From NCBI GenBank assembly GCA_946616295.1, contig CAMOIU010000001.1:17748-81747 (forward strand): 64,000 nt of DNA, in the 5' to 3' direction. Positions 1 to 9,840 of the stretch are shown one piece after another. Origin of the DNA: an uncultured Lachnospiraceae bacterium (lineage in GTDB: Bacteria > Bacillota > Clostridia > Lachnospirales > Lachnospiraceae). Both the position numbers and the translations under genes were made by a program. The notes under the pieces are model-generated. The model did not search any database. It saw only the letters and a list, made by a program, of their open reading frames with translations, and was not told the origin of the DNA. Within the stretch, counting starts at the first letter, position 1. Each line of letters begins with the position of its first letter.

Positions 1-636
1 CGCGGCAAGGGCGCCATGGGTATGGGCGGCAAGCTCTACCGTCAGGGCCTGATCAAGATGAATGAGTTCGTGACCCTCTGCTCCAGAGACAAGATCCCGA
101 TGATCTGGGTGCAGGATACCACCGGTATCGACGTCGACAACGAAGCGGAGAAGGCAGAGCTCCTCGGCCTCGGCCAGAGCCTGATCTACTCCATCCAGAA
201 CAGCGGCCTCAAGATGCTGGAGATCACCCTCCGCAAGGGCACGGCTGCCGCGCACTACGTTCTGGGCGGACCGCAGGGCAATGACAACAATGTCTTCTCC
301 CTGGGCACAGCCGCGACGGAGATCAACGTCATGTACGGCAAGACCGCGGCAGGCGCCATGTACAGCCGCCGTCTGGTCAAGGATCAGGATACAGGCAAGG
401 ATCTGCAGGGCACCATCGACAAGATGAACAAGCTGATCCAGGAATACGCGGATCACTCCAGCCCCGCCTACTGCGCCAAGGCCGGTATGGTCGACGAGAT
501 CGTCGATATGCCCAAGCTCCGCAAGTACGTGCAGGCCTTCACGGATGCCGCCTATCAGAATCCCAAGGCCATCTGCCCTGTGCACCAGATGATCCTGCCC
601 CGCATCATCCGTGACTACGATCACACACATAAATAA
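1..636 (+). CDS. gcdA: Glutaconyl-CoA decarboxylase alpha (carboxyltransferase) subunit, 3' part (5'-truncated by window)
   Basis: Frame open from base 1. The sequence GKLYRQGLIKMNEFVTLCSRD...QDTTGID...AELLGLGQSLIYSIQ...RKGTAAAHYVLGGPQ...CPVHQMILPR closely follows the GcdA C-terminus as I recall it from Acidaminococcus fermentans; lies directly upstream of hgdCAB. Confidence 0.9.
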   Translation, partial: RGKGAMGMGGKLYRQGLIKMNEFVTLCSRDKIPMIWVQDTTGIDVDNEAEKAELLGLGQSLIYSIQNSGLKMLEITLRKGTAAAHYVLGGPQGNDNNVFSLGTAATEINVMYGKTAAGAMYSRRLVKDQDTGKDLQGTIDKMNKLIQEYADHSSPAYCAKAGMVDEIVDMPKLRKYVQAFTDAAYQNPKAICPVHQMILPRIIRDYDHTHK

Positions 637-660
637 AGCGATAAGCTGAAGAATCGGAAG

Positions 661-696
661 GATCCGCGGGTCCGCAGAAGAGGGGATCCGCGGATC
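661..696. other. Intergenic GC-rich inverted repeat between gcdA and hgdC
   Basis: GATCCGCGG (661-669) pairs with CCGCGGATC (688-696). Confidence 0.5.
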
Positions 697-733
697 ATTT
701 CCGGTTTATGCTCCTGATACAGAAATCATACAA

Positions 734-1549
734 ATGGAGACAGAAATGGGCGATATCTATACACTGGGAATCGACGTGGGATCTACCGCTTCCAAATGTA
801 TCATACTGAAGAACGGGGAGGAGATCGTCGCCAAGTCCCTGGTAGATGTGGGAGCGGGCACCAGCGGTCCCCAGAGAGCCATCGAGAACGTGCTGGCCAG
901 GGCCGGCATGGAGGAACACGACATTGACTACACCCTCGCGACAGGATACGGACGCAACTCCCTGATGGGACTGGCGGACAAGCAGATGAGCGAGCTCAGC
1001 TGCCACGCCAGAGGCGCTTATTTCCTGTTCCCCCAGGTCCACACGGTCATCGATATCGGCGGTCAGGACGTCAAGGTCATGCGGATCGAGAACGGCGCCA
1101 TGACCAACTTCCAGATGAATGACAAGTGCGCCGCCGGAACGGGCCGTTTCCTGGATGTCATGGCACGGGTCCTGGAGGTCAATGTCGACGAGCTGGGCGA
1201 GCTGGGCGCACAGTCCCAGAAGAGGGTGGAGATCAGTTCCACCTGTACGGTTTTTGCCGAGAGTGAGGTCATCAGCCAGCTGGCCAACGGAACGGACCGG
1301 AAGGATATCATCGCCGGCATCCACCGCAGCGTCGCCCACCGGGTCACCGGTCTGGCGCGCCGGATCGGCGTTCAGGACCAGGTCGTCATGACCGGCGGCG
1401 TCGCCCAGAACCAGGGCATCGTCGGCGCCCTGCAGGATGAACTCGGATGTAAGATCCAGACATCGCCGCTGACACAGTACAACGGTGCGCTCGGCGCATC
1501 GCTTTTCGCGTATCAGATCGCGAAGAAGAAAGCGGCAGCAAAAGCGTGA
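734..1549 (+). CDS. hgdC: 2-hydroxyglutaryl-CoA dehydratase activator (ASKHA ATPase, 4Fe-4S); start may be 746
   Basis: [54 protein letters not shown] motifs. Confidence 0.93.
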
Positions 1550-1619
1550 AATTCGGCGCGTCTTCCGAAAAATGCAGATGAGGGCGGAAGAGCACCGTTT
1601 TTAAGGAAAGGAGAGGATT

Positions 1620-2981
1620 ATGGCAAAAGAAGTGAGCCCCGGCGTAAAAGCGCTGCGGCAGGTAGTCGAGGATGTCTACGCGGAAGCCAGAGAAGCCAAG
1701 AAGAGAGGAGAGCCTGTGGGCTGGTCTTCTTCCAAGTTCCCCTGCGAACTGGCGGAAGCCTTCGGTCTGCATGTTGTCTATCCTGAGAACCAGGCAGCCG
1801 GTATCGCCGCCAACAGAGACGGCGAGGTGATGTGCCAGGCAGCCGAGGATCTGGCCTATGACAACGACATCTGCGGTTATGCCCGTATCAGCCTTGCGTA
1901 CGCCGCGGGCAAGAGAGCTGCGAAGAAGCTGGATCCCGAGACCCTCGAGGTCGTGATCAACCCCGAGACGGAGAAGCCCTACACTGAGCTCGTTGACATC
2001 AACGAGATCTGGGCTATGCCCGAGGGAGAGGAGAAGGAGAAGAGGCTGGCGGCCATCAAGCCTTATCGTCAGATGCAGATGCCCATGCCCGATTTCGTTC
2101 TCTGCTGCAACAATATCTGCAACTGCATGACCAAATGGTATGAGAATATCGCGCGCATGCACAATATTCCGCTGGTCATGATCGATATCCCCTACAACAA
2201 CACCGTGGAAGTGGATGACACCTATGTGGCTTACATCCGCGGCCAGTTCGACAAGGCCATCCATCAGCTGGAGGAGATCAGCGGCAAGAAGTTCGACGAG
2301 AAGAAGTTCGAGGAGGCCTGCGCCAACGCCAACCGCACCGCCAAGGCATGGCTGAAGGTCTGCGACTATCTGCAGTACAAGCCCGCCCCGATGAGCGGAT
2401 TTGACCTGTTCAACCACATGGCGGACGTCGTCACCGCCCGCGGCCGCGTGGCAGCCGCCGAGGCTTTCGAGCTTCTGGCCACCGAGCTGGAAGAGAACGT
2501 GAAGACCGGCAAGAGCACCCTTCCTTTCCCGGAGGACTACCGGATCATGTTCGAAGGCATCCCCTGCTGGCCCAAGCTTCCCGCACTCTTCCGTCCCCTC
2601 AAGAAGAACGGCATCAACGTCACGGCTGTCGTGTACGCTCCCGCCTTCGGTTTTGTCTACAACGGACTGGACGAGATGGTCAAGGCTTACTGCAAGGCTC
2701 CCAACTCCGTATGTCTGGAGCAGGGCGTTGACTGGAGAGAGGGCATCTGCCGCGACAACAAGGTCGACGGCGTGCTGGTCCACTACAACCGCAGCTGCAA
2801 GCCCTGGAGCGGATACATGGCAGAGATGCAGCGCCGCTTCACCGCGGACCTCGGCATCCCCTGCGCAGGTTTCGACGGCGACCAGGCCGATCCCAGAAAC
2901 TTCAACGAAGCGCAGTATGAGACCCGCGTACAGGGCCTGGTGGAAGCCATGGAGGCGGCCCGTCTGGCCAAAGAGGCGTGA
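1620..2981 (+). CDS. hgdA: 2-hydroxyglutaryl-CoA dehydratase alpha subunit
   Basis: GWSSSKFPCEL, YPENQAAGIAA, DICGYARIS, CCNNICNCMTKWY, HYNRSCKPWSG, FDGDQADPRNFNEAQYETR; AGGAGAGG RBS upstream. Confidence 0.93.
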   Translation: MAKEVSPGVKALRQVVEDVYAEAREAKKRGEPVGWSSSKFPCELAEAFGLHVVYPENQAAGIAANRDGEVMCQAAEDLAYDNDICGYARISLAYAAGKRAAKKLDPETLEVVINPETEKPYTELVDINEIWAMPEGEEKEKRLAAIKPYRQMQMPMPDFVLCCNNICNCMTKWYENIARMHNIPLVMIDIPYNNTVEVDDTYVAYIRGQFDKAIHQLEEISGKKFDEKKFEEACANANRTAKAWLKVCDYLQYKPAPMSGFDLFNHMADVVTARGRVAAAEAFELLATELEENVKTGKSTLPFPEDYRIMFEGIPCWPKLPALFRPLKKNGINVTAVVYAPAFGFVYNGLDEMVKAYCKAPNSVCLEQGVDWREGICRDNKVDGVLVHYNRSCKPWSGYMAEMQRRFTADLGIPCAGFDGDQADPRNFNEAQYETRVQGLVEAMEAARLAKEA

Positions 2982-3001
2982 GAGAGAGGAGGCAGAGGCA
3001 A

Positions 3002-4150
3002 ATGAGTAATTTGGATAATCTCTTTAATAAATTTGAACAGGCCGCTTCTTCTCCCGCGGGACAGCTGGCGGCTTACAAGGCACAGGGCAAGAAGGCCATC
3101 GGCGTTCTTCCCTATTACGCACCGGAAGAGCTCGTCTATGCGGCGGGCATGGTCCCCTTCGGCATGTGGGGATCCAACAAGAAGACCATCAGCAGAGCCA
3201 AGGAATACTGCGCGACCTTCTACTGCACGATCGCACAGCTGGCCGTGGAAATGCTGCTGGACGGCACCATGGACGGCCTGAGCGGCGTGATCACCCCTAC
3301 GATCTGCGATACCCTCCGTCCCATGAGCCAGAACATCCGTATCTCCATGTCCGACAAGATGCCGGTCATCTTCCTGGCGCATCCGCAGAACCGCTTCGAT
3401 GAGAACGGCCTGCGCTTCACCGTCAGCCAGTACACCAACATCCGGAAGAGACTCGAGGAGATCGCGGGCCACCCGATCACCGATGACGACATCCGCGAGG
3501 CGATCAAGGTCTACAATGCCTGCCACGTCGAGCAGCGCCGCTTCGTCAAGCTCGCCGGCGAGCATCCCGAGGCAGTCTCCGCCGTGAAGAGATCCGCAGT
3601 CCTGAAGGCGGGCTGGTTCACTCTCAAGGATGAGTACACCAAGATGCTGAAGGAACTGAACGACGAACTGGAAGCTCTGCCCAAGGTCGCATGGCCCGGC
3701 ACCAAGGTCGTCGTCTCCGGCATTATCTTCGACAACCCGGTCCTGCTGCAGATCTTCGACGACTATCAGATCGCGATCGTGGCGGATGATGTTGCCCACG
3801 AGAGCCGCACCTTCAAGACGGATATCCCGGACGACGCGGATCCCATGATGGCTCTCGCCAGACAGTTCGCGAACCGTGATCATGACGTACTGCTCTATGA
3901 TCCCGCTTCCGCGAAGAACCGCCGTGCGGAGTATGTGGCTCAGCTCGTGAAGGACAGCGGCGCGGACGGCCTTGTCCTCTTCATGCAGCAGTTCTGCGAT
4001 CCTGAGGAGATGGAGTATCCTTACCTCAAGAAGGAACTCGATGCGCAGAACATTCCTCACATCAAGCTCGGCATCGACCAGCAGATGCGCGATTTCGGCC
4101 AGGCCAGGACAGCGCTTCAGGCATTCGCGGATGTTCTTGCCCTCAGCTGA
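3002..4150 (+). CDS. hgdB: 2-hydroxyglutaryl-CoA dehydratase beta subunit
   Basis: PYYAPEELVYAAG, YCATFYCTIAQ, ICDTLRPMSQN, QFCDPEEMEYP motifs; follows hgdA; ATG at 3002 after GGAGG. Confidence 0.9.
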   Translation: MSNLDNLFNKFEQAASSPAGQLAAYKAQGKKAIGVLPYYAPEELVYAAGMVPFGMWGSNKKTISRAKEYCATFYCTIAQLAVEMLLDGTMDGLSGVITPTICDTLRPMSQNIRISMSDKMPVIFLAHPQNRFDENGLRFTVSQYTNIRKRLEEIAGHPITDDDIREAIKVYNACHVEQRRFVKLAGEHPEAVSAVKRSAVLKAGWFTLKDEYTKMLKELNDELEALPKVAWPGTKVVVSGIIFDNPVLLQIFDDYQIAIVADDVAHESRTFKTDIPDDADPMMALARQFANRDHDVLLYDPASAKNRRAEYVAQLVKDSGADGLVLFMQQFCDPEEMEYPYLKKELDAQNIPHIKLGIDQQMRDFGQARTALQAFADVLALS

Positions 4151-4183
4151 ACCGTGTCAAAGCAGAAATATGAGGTGAAGACT

Positions 4184-5563
4184 ATGAGTAATTCTTCTGC
4201 AGCAAGACAGAGGATCGAAAAACTTCTCGATGCCAACAGCTTCGTGGAGATCGGGGCGGGCGTTCACGCCCGCGCGACCGATTTCAATCCCCGTCCGGCG
4301 GAAGCGTCCTCGGACGGAGTCATCACCGGTTATGGTCTCATCGAAGACAGCCTGGTCTATGTATACAGCCAGGATGCTTCTGTTCTGGGCGGCAGCATCG
4401 GAGAGATGCACGCCCGGAAGATCATCAGGATCTATGATATGGCCATCAAGACCGGTGCTCCGGTGATCGGTCTGATCGACAGTGCCGGCCTGCGTCTGCA
4501 GGAAGGCATGGACGCGCTCGATGCGGTCGCCGGGATCTACGCCAGACAGGCAGCAGCCTCCGGCCTGATCCCCCAGATCAGCGCCGTCTTCGGACGCTGC
4601 GGCGGCGGTCTCGCCGTGGCGGCTTCCATGTGCGATTTCACGTTGATGGAGTCTGGTGCTCATCTGTTCGTGAACGCGCCCAACACACTTGCGGGCAACC
4701 GTGAGGAGAGCAACGATACCTCCTCCGCATCCAGCAGGGCGGCAGCCGGTGTCGCGGACTATACCGGCACGGAAGACGAGGTGCTCGGCAAGATCCGGGA
4801 ACTGGTAGACATTCTTCCCTGCAACTATGAGGACATCGCCGAGGGCGAGAGCGAAGACGATCTGAACCGCGGCTGCACAGGCATCGCGGCAGGGGCTGAC
4901 CCGGCAGCGATCATGAAGGAAGCGGCGGATGACGGCGTATTCGTAGAGATCAGGAGCGCCTTCGCGCCGGATATGACCGCGGGTCTGGCAAGACTCGGCG
5001 GCACGACAGTCGGCGTGATCGGCAACCGCAGCCCCCTGCTCACAGCGGACGGCTGCACCAAGGCCGCTGACCTTGTCAGGTTCTGCGACGCCTTCGGCAT
5101 TCCGGTGATCTCCCTGACCAACGCGACAGGTTTTGCCGCCGCGATCGGTGAGGAGAACCGGGAAGGCAGTGCCGCAGCGGCTCTCACCATGGCACTGGCC
5201 AGGGCTTCCGTACCCAAGATCAATGTGATCACCAAACAGTCCATGGGAAGCGCCTACGCGGTCATGAACGCCAAGGCCACCGGCGCCGACCTGACCTTCG
5301 CCTTCCCCGGCGCTGTGATCGGGATCATGGACGCCGCCATGGCGGCACGCGTGATGGTGCCCGGCGCGGACAAGCTGACCTTTGAGGAGACCAGGCAGCG
5401 CTACGCGGAGACCCAGTGCAGTCTCGCCGGCGCGGCCGCGAGAGGCCTTGTGGACAGCGTCGTGGAGCCCGCGGATCTCCGCAGGTACCTGATCGGCGCT
5501 CTGGAGGTCCTTTATACCAAACGGGTGGATACCCCTGCCGGCAAACACATCAGCCACTGCTAA
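4184..5563 (+). CDS. Divergent acyl-CoA carboxyltransferase (MmdA/PccB-like)
   Basis: ARQRIEKLLDANSFVEIG, DGVITGYG, YSQDASVLGGSIGE, DSAGLRLQEG, VRFCDAFGIPV; several canonical motifs are altered. Confidence 0.8.
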   Translation: MSNSSAARQRIEKLLDANSFVEIGAGVHARATDFNPRPAEASSDGVITGYGLIEDSLVYVYSQDASVLGGSIGEMHARKIIRIYDMAIKTGAPVIGLIDSAGLRLQEGMDALDAVAGIYARQAAASGLIPQISAVFGRCGGGLAVAASMCDFTLMESGAHLFVNAPNTLAGNREESNDTSSASSRAAAGVADYTGTEDEVLGKIRELVDILPCNYEDIAEGESEDDLNRGCTGIAAGADPAAIMKEAADDGVFVEIRSAFAPDMTAGLARLGGTTVGVIGNRSPLLTADGCTKAADLVRFCDAFGIPVISLTNATGFAAAIGEENREGSAAAALTMALARASVPKINVITKQSMGSAYAVMNAKATGADLTFAFPGAVIGIMDAAMAARVMVPGADKLTFEETRQRYAETQCSLAGAAARGLVDSVVEPADLRRYLIGALEVLYTKRVDTPAGKHISHC

Positions 5564-5578
5564 GGGGGTGAAGAGCAT

Positions 5579-5962
5579 ATGATGGAGTTAATGAAGGAGG
5601 CGGGACTGAATACCATCCTCGGAATGGGTATGACCTTCCTGGTACTGATCCTGCTCTCAGGCATTATTACCATGTTCGGAAGGGCCATCACCGCCTTCCA
5701 GAACAAAGCCGCATCCGACCGGAAGAAAGAATTGAAAGAGTCTGCCCCGCAGGAAGTCAGGGAAGTGCCGGCTCCGGCCGCCCCTGCTCCCGCAGGGGAC
5801 GGTGACCTGATGGCGGTTCTCGCCGCGGCTGTGGCCGCCTTTGAGAGCGACACGATGTCGCCGGAGATCGCCGCCGTCATCGCCGCCGCCGTGGCCGCCT
5901 ATGAAGGCAGCAGCGGCTATGTGGTCAGGAAGATCAGGAAGTCCAGGAAACACGTGGCCTGA
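5579..5962 (+). CDS. OadG/GcdD-type (gamma/delta) membrane-anchor subunit of a Na+-translocating decarboxylase
   Basis: One N-terminal TM helix (LGMGMTFLVLILL), Ala/Pro linker, AVIAAAVAAYE and a basic C-terminus; position in the cluster. Confidence 0.8.
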   Translation: MMELMKEAGLNTILGMGMTFLVLILLSGIITMFGRAITAFQNKAASDRKKELKESAPQEVREVPAPAAPAPAGDGDLMAVLAAAVAAFESDTMSPEIAAVIAAAVAAYEGSSGYVVRKIRKSRKHVA

Positions 5963-6021
5963 TATCCGCCCGTCTGTTATTTGAAAAGCCTGAGAAGGCT
6001 GTCTGTTTAAGGAGGAAAGAA

Positions 6022-6432
6022 ATGAAGACTTATACGATCACTGTTAATGGTGTTGCTTACGATGTGACCGTGGAAGAGACCGGCGCGGCCGCAGCCGCTC
6101 CCGTGATCCGCAGCGCCGCTCCCGCAGCGCCCGCCCCGGCTGCTCCCGCAGCACCCGCGCCTGCTCCTGCTCCCGCACCTGCCCCCGCTCCCGCTCCCGC
6201 CAAGGCTGCCGCAGCCGGCGCTCACAAGCTGGAAGCCGGCGCGGCCGGTAAGGTCTTCAAGATCGAGAAGAAGGTCGGCGACGCCGTCAAGAAGGGCGAT
6301 GCCGTTATCATTCTCGAGGCCATGAAGATGGAGATCCCCATGGTGGCTCCCGCTGACGGCACCGTCGCCAGCATTGACTGCCAGGTGGGCGATCCTGTGG
6401 AAGCCGGTGCTCTTCTGGCAACGATCGGATGA
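6022..6432 (+). CDS. Biotin carboxyl carrier protein of a Na+-translocating decarboxylase
   Basis: YTITVNGVAYDVTVEE N-terminus, AP-rich linker, EAMKM biotinylation motif. Confidence 0.92.
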   Translation: MKTYTITVNGVAYDVTVEETGAAAAAPVIRSAAPAAPAPAAPAAPAPAPAPAPAPAPAPAKAAAAGAHKLEAGAAGKVFKIEKKVGDAVKKGDAVIILEAMKMEIPMVAPADGTVASIDCQVGDPVEAGALLATIG

Positions 6433-6478
6433 TCTCTGTCCCCTGTAACAGAGGTCTTCAGAGTACCGGAGGCAGTAT

Positions 6479-7624
6479 ATGGATTATATCGTAAATACAC
6501 TGGATAACCTATTGCACCAGACCGCCTTTCTGAGTCTGACTCCCGGGAACTACCTGATGATCGCCGTTGCGTGCATCTTCCTGTATCTTGCGATCGCGCA
6601 TGATTTCGAGCCCCTGCTGCTCGTCCCGATCGCATTCGGCATGCTGCTCGTCAACATTTATCCCGATATCATGGCGGCTCCCACGGAGACCTCGGCCGGC
6701 GGACTGCTGCACTATTTCTTCCAGCTGGATGAGTGGGCCATTCTGCCCTCACTGATCTTCATGGGCGTGGGTGCCATGACGGACTTCGGTCCGCTGATCG
6801 CCAATCCCATGAGCTTCCTGCTGGGAGCGGCCGCACAGTTCGGTATCTTTGCCGCCTACTTCGGAGCTATCGCTCTGGGCTTCAACGGCAAGGCCGCGGC
6901 GGCGATCTCCATCATCGGCGGTGCTGACGGCCCCACCTCCATCTTCCTCTGCTCCAAGCTGGGACAGACGGAGCTGCTGGGACCCATCGCGGTGGCGGCG
7001 TACTCCTATATGTCGCTGGTCCCGATCATCCAGCCCCCGATCATGAAGCTGTTCACCACAGATAAAGAGCGCAGGATCAAGATGGAACAGCTCCGTCCGG
7101 TGTCGCGTCTGGAGAGGATCCTCTTCCCCATCGTCGTGACCATCGTGGTCTGCATGATCCTGCCCACCACAGCGCCCCTGGTCGGCATGCTGATGCTGGG
7201 CAACCTCTTCCGTGAGTGCGGCGTCGTGAGACAGCTGACAGAGACAGCTTCCAACGCAATGATGTACATCGTGGTCATCCTGCTGGGCACGTCCGTCGGC
7301 GCGACGACCAGCGCGGAGGCCTTCCTGAATGTCACCACCCTCAAGATCGTGGCCCTGGGCCTGATCGCGTTCGCATTCGGAACCCTGGCGGGCGTCCTGT
7401 TCGGCAAGCTCATGTGCGTGGCCACCGGCGGCAAGATCAATCCGCTGATCGGCAGCGCGGGCGTTTCGGCCGTTCCCATGGCGGCGCGCGTCTCCCAGAA
7501 GGTGGGTGCGGAGTATGATCCCACCAACTTCCTGCTGATGCATGCCATGGGCCCGAACGTGGCCGGCGTTATCGGCACGGCAGTCGCGGCCGGCGTGTTT
7601 ATGGCGGTGTTTGGAATTGTATAA
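6479..7624 (+). CDS. Na+-translocating decarboxylase beta subunit (OadB/GcdB/MmdB family)
   Basis: FEPLLLVPIAFG, GAMTDFGPL, IIGGADGPTSIF, AYSYMSLVPIIQPP, NPLIGSAGVSAVPMAAR, MGPNVAGVIG motifs; strongly hydrophobic. Confidence 0.95.
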   Translation: MDYIVNTLDNLLHQTAFLSLTPGNYLMIAVACIFLYLAIAHDFEPLLLVPIAFGMLLVNIYPDIMAAPTETSAGGLLHYFFQLDEWAILPSLIFMGVGAMTDFGPLIANPMSFLLGAAAQFGIFAAYFGAIALGFNGKAAAAISIIGGADGPTSIFLCSKLGQTELLGPIAVAAYSYMSLVPIIQPPIMKLFTTDKERRIKMEQLRPVSRLERILFPIVVTIVVCMILPTTAPLVGMLMLGNLFRECGVVRQLTETASNAMMYIVVILLGTSVGATTSAEAFLNVTTLKIVALGLIAFAFGTLAGVLFGKLMCVATGGKINPLIGSAGVSAVPMAARVSQKVGAEYDPTNFLLMHAMGPNVAGVIGTAVAAGVFMAVFGIV

Positions 7625-7625
7625 A

Positions 7626-7774
7626 ACAGCGGGTGTTGAGTTCAGTTTCTCATTTTGAACCCGCTGTCGCAGGTTGCCGCCATTGGACGGCAACCTGTCA
7701 CTACGCACTGAATCGTTCATCACTGTGAACCCGCTGGCGCAGGTTTCCGCCACCACGCGGCAACCTGTCACTAC
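7626..7774. repeat. Two 49-bp direct repeats (70-bp period), each holding a hairpin, overlapping a further inverted repeat
   Basis: TGAACCCGCTG.CGCAGGTT.CCGCCA....CGGCAACCTGTCACTAC at 7656-7704 and 7726-7774; the internal stem is CAGGTTGCCG/CGGCAACCTG; ACAGCGGGT (7626) pairs with ACCCGCTGT (7659). Confidence 0.8.
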
Positions 7775-7872
7775 TGTTCCAAACTCCTGCGCAGCAGGAG
7801 TCTGGAACCGGGTGCTGATTCACAGCAAGTGACCCGCCGCACATTGGATGTTTTATGAAAGGGAATAACCAT

Positions 7873-9285
7873 ATGGCAACAAGTGGAAAAAAACCGATCA
7901 GGATCACAGAAACGATCCTGCGGGACGCGCATCAGTCCCTGATCGCCACCAGAATGCCCACCGATATCATGCTTCCCATTATCGGGAAGATGGATCAGAT
8001 CGGGTATGAAGCGGTGGAGTGCTGGGGCGGCGCGACCTTTGATTCCTGTCTCCGGTTCCTCCACGAGGATCCGTGGGAGAGGCTGAGAAAGCTCCGCGCG
8101 GGCTTCAAAAAGACCAAACTGCAGATGCTCCTGCGCGGGCAGAACCTGCTCGGCTACCAGAACTATCCGGATGACGTGGTGGAGTATTTTGTCCAGAAGT
8201 CCATCGCCAACGGCATCGACATCATCCGTATCTTCGACTGCCTGAATGACCTCAGGAACCTGGAGACGGCTGTCCGTGCCACCAAGAGGGAGAGCGGCCA
8301 CGCGCAGATCGCGCTGTCCTACACCCTGGGCGGTGCCTATACGGAAGAGTACTGGACCGATATCGCCCGCCGCATCGAGGATATGGGCGCGGATTCCATC
8401 TGCATCAAGGATATGTCCGGCCTGCTCCTTCCTTATGACGCGGAGCATCTTGTGCGGACCCTGAAGGCGGCCACCAAGCTGCCGATCGAGCTGCACACCC
8501 ACTACACCTCCGGCTGCGGCAGCATGACCTACATGAAGGCCGCGGAAGCGGGCGTGGACATCATTGATACCGCCATCAGCCCCTTCGCCCTGGGTACCTC
8601 CCAGCCCGCGACGGAAGTCATGGTCGGTGCTTTTGCCGGTACACCGTATGACACCGGACTGGACCAGGCCAAGCTCAAGGAGATCGCGGACTACTTCACC
8701 CCTTACAGGGAGGAGTGCCTGGAGAACGGTCTCATGAGCACCAAGGTGCTGGGCGTCAACATCCGCACCCTCCTCTATCAGGTGCCCGGCGGCATGCTCT
8801 CCAACATGGTGAGCCAGCTCAACGAGCAGGGCGCCGGAGACAGGCTGACAGAGGTGCTGGAGGAAGTGCCGAGAGTCCGCAAGGACCTGGGCGAGCCCCC
8901 GCTGGTGACACCTTCGTCCCAGATCGTGGGCACACAGGCCGTCATGAACGTCCTGTTCGGCGAGCGCTACAAGGTGGCTTCCGAGCAGACCAAGGACCTG
9001 TGCAGAGGCAAGTACGGCCAGACCATCGTTCCCATGAACGAGGAGGTCGTGAAGAAGATCATCGGCGACGAGGAGAGGATCACCTGCCGTCCCGCCGACC
9101 TGATCGAGCCCCAGCTGCCCAAGTTCGAGGAGGACGTGGCCCAGTGGAAGCAGCAGGATGAGGACGTTCTGTCCTACGCCCTGTTCCCGCAGGTGGCCGT
9201 GGACTTCTTCAAGTATCGTCTGGCACAGCAGCAGGGCGTGGATCTCACCAAGGCCGACAGCGGCAATGGTGCCTATCCTGCTTGA
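7873..9285 (+). CDS. oadA: Oxaloacetate decarboxylase alpha-like carboxyltransferase without a biotinyl domain
   Basis: ITETILRDAHQSLIATRM, ECWGGATFD, ICIKDMSG, LHTHYTSG, QVPGGMLSN, PPLVTPSSQIVG; ends with no MKM domain. Confidence 0.88.
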   Translation: MATSGKKPIRITETILRDAHQSLIATRMPTDIMLPIIGKMDQIGYEAVECWGGATFDSCLRFLHEDPWERLRKLRAGFKKTKLQMLLRGQNLLGYQNYPDDVVEYFVQKSIANGIDIIRIFDCLNDLRNLETAVRATKRESGHAQIALSYTLGGAYTEEYWTDIARRIEDMGADSICIKDMSGLLLPYDAEHLVRTLKAATKLPIELHTHYTSGCGSMTYMKAAEAGVDIIDTAISPFALGTSQPATEVMVGAFAGTPYDTGLDQAKLKEIADYFTPYREECLENGLMSTKVLGVNIRTLLYQVPGGMLSNMVSQLNEQGAGDRLTEVLEEVPRVRKDLGEPPLVTPSSQIVGTQAVMNVLFGERYKVASEQTKDLCRGKYGQTIVPMNEEVVKKIIGDEERITCRPADLIEPQLPKFEEDVAQWKQQDEDVLSYALFPQVAVDFFKYRLAQQQGVDLTKADSGNGAYPA

Positions 9286-9299: not shown

Positions 9300-9408
9300 C
9301 AAACCGCCGTGTGCAGGCCGGAAACCTTCGGGACCCATGTGCCCGGGAGCCGGCCTGCACCTTTTTTCAAGAGAAGCAGTAAGACGGAAGACACAGAGAG
9401 GAGCGAAT

Positions 9409-9840
9409 ATGCCGCAGGATCAGGGCTTATCCCCGGAGGAGTACAACGCGGAGCTTCTGAAGAAGGAGCAGGACATACTGGAGAGGAACCTTTTTGCCAA
9501 GTATAACCATGTCCGCCTGGCCGTCGTGGAAAGAGACCACGTCGAAGTGTATCTGGACATCGTGCCGGAGTCGCTGAACGCGCGCGGCACCGTCCACGGA
9601 GGCGCGTATTTTGCCATGGCGGATGCCTGCGCGGGCATCGTCAGCAGGACAGACGGAAGAATGTATGTCACGCAGACGGCGACGGTTCAGTACCTGCGCG
9701 CCGCGACAGAGGGAAGACTGACTGCCGTCGGCACGGTCCTGCACAGAGGCAGGACCAGCTGCCTCGTTGAGGTCCGCATCCTCGGAGAGGATGAGAAAAC
9801 GGTATTTATAGGAACATTCCTGTCTCACTGCCTGGGGTAA
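9409..9840 (+). CDS. PaaI-family (hotdog-fold) thioesterase
   Basis: LNARGTVHGGAYFAMADAC motif, YLRAATEG, HRGRTS; ATG at 9409 after GAGGAG. Confidence 0.88.
   Translation: MPQDQGLSPEEYNAELLKKEQDILERNLFAKYNHVRLAVVERDHVEVYLDIVPESLNARGTVHGGAYFAMADACAGIVSRTDGRMYVTQTATVQYLRAATEGRLTAVGTVLHRGRTSCLVEVRILGEDEKTVFIGTFLSHCLG

Follow-up and report, generated by a model that had tools for sequence, protein, structure and literature searches.

Glutaconyl-coenzyme A (CoA) decarboxylase, GcdABCD, of Acidaminococcus fermentans and Clostridium symbiosum is one of several described enzyme systems that resemble the locus discussed here. Others are the oxaloacetate decarboxylase (OAD) Na+ pump, OadABG, of Vibrio, Klebsiella and Salmonella; the methylmalonyl-CoA:pyruvate transcarboxylase of Propionibacterium (12S/5S/1.3S); MmdABCDE; and the paired carboxyltransferases (CTs) of Geobacter bemidjiensis. 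As far as we know, the Na+-translocating decarboxylases characterised in the laboratory have, without exception, one CT per pump. The present locus encodes three CTs beside one set of pump genes. It occupies the first 9.8 kb, and the upstream flank, of a 64,000-nucleotide stretch of DNA from an uncultured Lachnospiraceae bacterium of the gut or rumen (‘the window’; G000:C1:17748-81747, G000 being the genome bin that holds it). On the + strand its genes are ordered gctA-gctB-gcdA-hgdC-hgdA-hgdB-CT2-gamma-BCCP-beta-OadA-thioesterase, where CT2 is an acyl-CoA CT, BCCP is a free biotin carboxyl carrier protein and OadA is biotin-less.

The gctAB-gcdA-hgdCAB order is that of the hydroxyglutarate operon of A. 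fermentans (PMC3035267), and the locus shares with the GcdABCD systems a close GcdA homologue, a free biotin carrier with an Ala/Pro linker, a small gamma/delta anchor and a beta pump. Unlike them, it has no beta of the GcdB clade and no dedicated gcdD or gcdC; its pump genes originate from an OAD-type module, and come with two further CTs. Likeness to the OAD pump lies in an OadA with an intact metal site, a beta homologous to OadB (6IVA) and a gamma of the OAD_gamma family. Unlike its enterobacterial and Vibrio counterparts, this OadA lacks a fused biotinyl domain, and past residue 459 it shows no sign of an association domain. The OadA/B/D/H system of Enterococcus faecalis reportedly has a separate biotin carrier, as the locus does. 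A further departure from the OAD pump is that a PccB-like CT is always co-encoded in the module, and GcdA as well at this locus. The Propionibacterium transcarboxylase has the same three types of soluble component and a similar N-terminal anchor on its carrier. In contrast to it, the locus has a membrane beta and gamma within the operon, its CT2 lacks the propionyl-specific Asp, and its genome lacks methylmalonyl-CoA mutase. It also differs from MmdABCDE, having neither an MmdA-type CT nor, in the mutase, a source of methylmalonyl-CoA. Geobacter bemidjiensis, like our bacterium, encodes GcdA and an OadA-type CT side by side: gcdA adjoins a two-biotin oadA, and cooperation between the two has been proposed (Aklujkar et al. 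2010, PMC2996986). There, however, pump subunits are absent and OadA bears its carrier domains in fused form, whereas the locus has a free carrier, a pump and a third CT.

To judge from its genes, the locus joins the hydroxyglutarate pathway of glutamate fermentation (GctAB, GcdA, HgdCAB) to a specialised paralogue of a module widespread in Lachnospiraceae. On balance, we think it probable that the product is a modular Na+ pump common to GcdA, OadA and the acyl-CoA CT. GcdA would pass the carboxyl group of glutaconyl-CoA to the free biotin carrier of the module, and beta would decarboxylate the carboxybiotin and export Na+. The same carrier and pump would also serve OadA (oxaloacetate to pyruvate) and CT2, with each of the three CTs, or ‘heads’, loading one swinging carrier. 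Physical sharing of carrier and pump is what we infer from three things taken together: GcdA needs a biotin acceptor, only carriers and pumps of the module type are present, and the module is conserved with hgd. These make a modular pump the best supported interpretation. A sequence-only reading of the window had proposed one membrane module shared by glutaconyl-CoA, oxaloacetate and perhaps methylmalonyl-CoA heads. The sharing of carrier and pump by GcdA, OadA and an acyl-CoA CT draws support from the inventory below; a methylmalonyl-CoA head, and the idea that this pump set is the only one in the genome, do not.

GcdA is rare in Lachnospiraceae, where 9 of 300 other genera and 7 of 85 congeners were found to have it. 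Of those nine genera, seven also possess a GcdB-clade beta, which in five is encoded directly upstream of gctA. This is the classical operon, gcdD-gcdC(-gcdC2)-gcdB-gctA-gctB-gcdA-hgdCAB. It is found in five genera and in the congeners G302 and G355, in which the order is gcdD-gcdC-gcdC-gcdB-gctAB-gcdA-hgdCAB. A different, fused form, hgdB-CT2-gamma-BCCP-beta-OadA-thioesterase without gcdDCB, occurs in three species of one genus (G000, G344 and G391) and on a metagenome contig (L140). In a tree of beta subunits, those of the classical gcd operons form a separate GcdB clade with 100% support, and the window beta stands, beside a second beta of the same bin, in the OAD-module clade with 99% support. 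Descent of the linked module from gcdDCB is rejected by this tree. A GcdB-type beta was not found in G344 (82% complete) or G391 (67% complete), nor a GcdB-clade beta in G000, which is rated 100% complete (3.5% contamination, 113 contigs) and in which both OAD_beta genes fall in the module clade. Biotinyl domains in the G000 bin are confined to decarboxylase modules. In a lineage without a GcdB, GcdC and GcdD of its own, GcdA therefore most likely uses the free carrier of the module, and a specialised copy of a two-headed module appears to have taken the place of the dedicated Gcd pump genes.

The rest of the inventory concerns a second module. It had been suggested that the genome be checked for other beta and biotin subunits: a second set turned up, a GcdB-clade set did not, and GcdA thus seems to be without dedicated partners. 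Three PF01039 genes are present in the bin, encoding GcdA, CT2 and a CT2 paralogue, CT', on contig C75. On this contig, which stops within BCCP', the order is scpA-scpB-CT'-gamma'-BCCP'; the terminal 55 bases of C75 are identical to the window BCCP, indicating that the assembly broke at a repeat. Of the two OAD_beta genes, one is in the window and the other on a 2.5-kb contig, C113, with the order BCCP-beta-OadA and its OadA cut by the contig end. Identities of the C75 and C113 copies to the window copy are 57% (CT), 49% (gamma), 69% (BCCP), 91% (beta) and 83% (OadA). C113 is not the continuation of C75, as their BCCP genes disagree at the 5' end (75% identity); the C113 BCCP differs at its 5' end from that of the window, too, and this contig may represent a third copy or have been mis-binned. 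In the sister species G344, the second module (L172) is complete and lies beside scpAB, syntenic with C75. The description ‘one pump set’ thus fits the locus and not the genome. The gammas of these housekeeping modules (L004 = G000:C75 150-905, minus strand; L172 7952-8728) are 251-259 amino acids long, with a lipoprotein signal peptide, an LAGC lipobox and, ahead of the OAD_gamma membrane helix, an extracytoplasmic domain of ∼125 amino acids that has no Pfam match. No function has, to our knowledge, been described for such an ectodomain in an OAD gamma subunit.

The housekeeping module is by no means peculiar to these species. Among species-representative genomes, a scan returned 80 Lachnospiraceae loci, 70 with the complete order CT-(gamma)-BCCP-beta-OadA and 10 ending at contig breaks; none of the 80 has gcdA or hgd within 10 kb. 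Of the 300 Lachnospiraceae genera sampled, 254 have the CT family of the module, nearly always in single copy, as do 216 of 250 genomes of good quality. Two heads per pump is thus the norm for the family, and the pairing of CT with OadA is no peculiarity of the locus but the standard Lachnospiraceae ‘OAD’ operon. In the relevant sections of the literature the complex is treated simply as an oxaloacetate decarboxylase Na+ pump, and the co-encoded PccB-like CT goes unmentioned there, both for Epulopiscium (PMC10756260) and for the butyrivibrios, all 62 examined genomes of which encode it (PMC4478896). In Clostridium thermocellum, blue native polyacrylamide gel electrophoresis (BN-PAGE) found a distant CT to be membrane-associated; a joint complex was not demonstrated.

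The linked module, in turn, is distinct from the housekeeping one. The hgd-linked CTs of G000, G344 and G391 and about a dozen metagenome proteins form a clade (14 rows, 98% support), and the CT' proteins of G000 and G344 belong to a different clade. Both modules are fully assembled in G344, and a comparison of the paralogues there gives identities of 57% (CT), 70% (BCCP), 99% (beta) and 86% (OadA); the gammas barely align. The linked gamma is 127-139 amino acids long. It has a single membrane helix and an Ala/Pro linker, and at its C-terminus two AVxAAAVAAxE helices in tandem, but no N-terminal lipoprotein ectodomain. This subtype is unique among the 76 module gammas compared. The other 74 have a median length of 259 amino acids and one AVxAAAVAAxE helix or none, with a lipobox in about half. 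In both Gcd and OAD, the small gamma/delta subunit's C-terminus joins alpha to the pump (PMC7145394), making the extra helix a candidate, if a speculative one, for the docking site of an extra head.

Could the module be an independent OAD operon, CT2-gamma-BCCP-beta-OadA, that merely follows hgdB, while GcdA uses the housekeeping module, free biotin or gcd genes missing from the assembly? The autonomy of the module as an operon elsewhere in the family speaks for this, as do the second module in the bin and an assembly of many contigs that breaks inside the paralogue. We nevertheless judge it unlikely. The hgd linkage has been kept in three species although the linked CTs have diverged to 63% identity; the gap between the hgdB stop and the probable CT2 start is only 33 bases in G000; the CT clade and gamma subtype of the linked module are its own, and occur only beside hgd wherever the context is known; and the bin offers no GcdB-clade beta. 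Several considerations do weigh against a shared modular pump. GcdA could use the second module instead of, or as well as, the linked one. The absence of gcdB from G344 and G391 is weaker evidence than its absence from G000, because those genomes are less complete. Approximately 370 bases separate hgdB from the CT gene in G391, and co-transcription cannot be taken for granted in every case. Any role for the extra gamma helix is speculative. And the GcdA of A. fermentans is described, in a passage of PMC2996986, as able to decarboxylate with free biotin.

A second alternative is that the main function is a transcarboxylase relay, in which carboxybiotin formed by GcdA or CT2 would go mainly to pyruvate via OadA, yielding oxaloacetate without ATP, with beta as an overflow. 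The module does contain a full set of transcarboxylase subunits: a 12S-like CT (242 bits to 1ON3), a 5S-like OadA (427 bits to 1RQB) and a 1.3S-like carrier. Biotin carboxylase was not found in the G000 bin, and hence the genome has no pyruvate carboxylase; and there is the GcdA-OadA cooperation proposed for G. bemidjiensis (PMC2996986). Still, we find this explanation improbable. Of all the genes in the unit, beta is the most conserved, both between species (a dN/dS, or ratio of non-synonymous to synonymous substitution rates, of 0.02) and between paralogues, an indication that the core function is pumping. PEP (phosphoenolpyruvate) carboxykinase, also encoded in the bin, is an alternative route to oxaloacetate, which would thus be available from PEP or aspartate. 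Energy conservation by Gcd, moreover, is central to this fermentation (PMC8473912). The gene for the PEP carboxykinase, an ATP-dependent one, is split over two contig ends (G000:C24 39284-39877 and C69 11142-11900).

It is most improbable, finally, that the linked CT2 and OadA are passengers decaying after duplication, with only gamma, BCCP and beta recruited for GcdA: CT2 is, to be sure, only 57% identical to its paralogue while the betas are 91-99% identical, but selection analysis largely refutes the idea (dN/dS of 0.10 for CT2 and 0.07 for OadA), and the family-invariant residues and catalytic motifs are all retained, with only 17, mostly conservative, clade-specific changes at conserved CT columns. 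The corresponding values, also from G000 versus G344, are 0.09 for gamma and 0.16 for BCCP, and every part of the module is therefore held by selection.

The same comparison reveals a mosaic of synonymous divergence (dS). It is ∼0.2 in gct-gcdA-hgdAB and 0.5-1.7 in the module, and DNA identity falls sharply at the hgdB/CT2 border. This suggests that the blocks moved separately by recombination, either through a recent exchange of the fermentation block or through replacement of the module segment. When positions 1-6432 of the window are set against L140 and L157 (G344), the DNA of gctAB-gcdA-hgdAB is 92-98% identical (dS ∼0.2), and the LysR flank and CT2-gamma-BCCP are 60-85% identical (dS 0.8-1.7).

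Carboxyl-transfer half-reactions are reversible. The chemistry would therefore allow transfer from head to head, such as from glutaconyl-CoA to pyruvate, and a bolder version of the shared pump can be imagined. This would be a three-headed machine, in which one carrier and Na+ pump serve GcdA, OadA and the acyl-CoA CT, CO2 passes between heads without ATP, and the whole is the sole biotin enzyme system of a cell that lacks biotin carboxylase. We regard this version as doubtful. If it is true, the ‘oxaloacetate decarboxylase’ of most Lachnospiraceae is an undescribed hybrid of transcarboxylase and Na+ pump with two heads. If several heads do share one carrier and pump, these pumps are modular energy converters, and glutamate, aspartate or oxaloacetate, and an acyl-CoA could all feed energy conservation through one and the same membrane unit. 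A question would then arise for Lachnospiraceae, too, a major family of the gut and rumen, whose ‘OAD’ always bears a second, uncharacterised CT. Fused and classical operons inside one genus form a natural pair for finding the subunits that decide head specificity.

What does CT2 act upon? It is PccB-like in fold only, scoring ∼285 bits against beta chains of propionyl-CoA carboxylase (PCC), and its GG oxyanion motif is conserved. S. coelicolor PccB D422 we take, by a count along an alignment, to lie in the GGAYDVM motif of the PCC beta chain 6YBP. The matching position is Ala in CT2 and Ile in CT', and across 89 family members it is V, I, A, T or L, never Asp. That Asp is conserved in propionyl-CoA-specific enzymes, and its replacement by Ile broadens specificity or shifts it towards acetyl-CoA (PMC7835884). 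The gene had been called MmdA/PccB-like, which is right of its fold, but CT2 is no MmdA: it scores 324 bits on TIGR01117 (mmdA), far below the cut-off of 999, the propionyl-specific Asp is missing, and methylmalonyl-CoA mutase (PF01642) was not found in the bin. The suggested methylmalonyl-CoA head is consequently unlikely. Supply of malonyl-CoA for fatty-acid synthesis is likewise rejected as the role of CT2: in addition to biotin carboxylase, FabD, a real ketoacyl synthase (FabF) and a CT of the AccA/D type were not found in the bin. Most congeners retain the module yet lack AccC and FabD (16 and 18 of 24, respectively, including genomes that are 95-99% complete), most of the genus is without FabF as well, and fatty-acid auxotrophy appears to prevail in it. 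Judged by its sequence, CT2 is more likely to act on malonyl-CoA, or on a promiscuous range of substrates, than on methylmalonyl-CoA.

The individual features are collected in the table below. All of the genes that the sequence-only reading had placed on the + strand (gcdA, hgdCAB, the MmdA/PccB-like CT, gamma, BCCP, beta and the biotin-less oadA) are there, and the domain matches agree. Its single gamma, BCCP and beta set holds within the locus but not within the bin, which contains a second OAD_beta and more carrier and gamma genes.

Table. Features of the hydroxyglutarate and carboxyltransferase/Na+ pump locus, in window coordinates
Feature	Position	Strand	Evidence and remarks
gcdA, C-terminal 211 codons; glutaconyl-CoA decarboxylase carboxyltransferase	1..636	+	PF01039
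hgdC, ATP-dependent activator of 2-hydroxyglutaryl-CoA dehydratase	734..1549	+	PF01869, TIGR00241
hgdA, dehydratase alpha subunit	1620..2981	+	PF06050
hgdB, dehydratase beta subunit	2978..4150	+	PF06050, 273 bits; 4-base overlap with the end of hgdA
CT2, PccB-fold acyl-CoA carboxyltransferase	4184..5563 (open reading frame opens with GTG at 4154)	+	PF01039, 285 bits; probable start ATG 4184, preceded by a GAGGTG ribosome-binding site
gamma/delta subunit, short subtype	5579..5962	+	PF04277 (OAD_gamma), 65 bits
BCCP, free biotin carboxyl carrier, 136 amino acids	6022..6432	+	PF00364; NF047903 (MmdC-like), below cut-off
beta (OAD_beta), carboxybiotin decarboxylase and Na+ channel, OAD-module clade	6479..7624	+	PF03977, 513 bits
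beta-oadA spacer with two tandem REP-like hairpin repeats	7625..7854	+	sequence and fold, z = -4.9
OadA, biotin-less oxaloacetate/pyruvate carboxyltransferase of the 5S type, 476 amino acids	7855..9285	+	PF00682 and PF02436
Hotdog-fold (PaaI-like) acyl-CoA thioesterase	9337..9840	+	PF03061, TIGR00369; last conserved gene of the unit

On the same contig, 5' of the window, lie two LysR regulator genes, gctA, gctB and the rest of gcdA. The complete gcdA (G000:C1:16590-18383) starts 1158 bp ahead of the window and encodes 597 amino acids. By its full-length matches of 864 bits to A. fermentans GcdA (1PIX) and 832 bits to 3GF3, the protein ranks as an orthologue of the characterised GcdA carboxyltransferases. 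GctA scores 438 bits against 1POI, and HgdC 417 bits against A. fermentans HgdC (1HUX) versus 307 bits against the isocaproyl activator. The sole solved relative of HgdA is HadB (3O3M, 387 bits), and its assignment to glutamate fermentation is made because of its context (GctAB, GcdA and HgdC). BCCP has an N-terminal anchor, MKTYTITVNGVAYDVTVEE, an Ala/Pro linker and an AMKM biotinylation motif. The beta subunit scores 381 bits against S. typhimurium OadB (6IVA), and its GGADGPT and NPLIGSAGVSAVPMAARVS motifs are conserved. OadA scores 737 bits on NF008985 (cut-off 718) and 487 bits against V. cholerae OadA (2NX9). In the alignment, its metal site comprises the RDAHQS (Asp), KDM (Lys) and HxH motifs. 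A Pfam search of OadA returned HMGL-like and PYC_OADA domains only, ending at residue 459 of 476, with no biotinyl or association domain. The thioesterase gene follows OadA in G344 and G391 also. Within the unit, no + strand terminator-like site stronger than a stem of 5-7 pairs was found, and the locus is probably one long transcription unit.

A few smaller observations remain. Several Lachnospiraceae have a third clade of OAD_beta (G281:C9 = L139, L124, L125, L135 and L136), with 100% support and ∼50% identity to the other two clades. Three database homologues (P0038, P0046 and P0089), of 716-723 amino acids, combine PF01039 with PF04277 and are apparent CT-gamma fusions. They are either real or read-through gene calls; a real one would be topologically odd if the gamma part retains its signal peptide. 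The possibility that the beta-oadA spacer encodes a regulatory RNA was rejected, since Rfam gave no match and repeats resembling REP (repetitive extragenic palindromic) elements were found there. The hairpin unit is ∼55 nucleotides long, with the core CAGGTTGCCGCC...GGCAACCTG, and a 44-nucleotide core of the repeat occurs in nine copies across five contigs of the bin. In other Lachnospiraceae, the distance from beta to oadA is only ∼10 bases.

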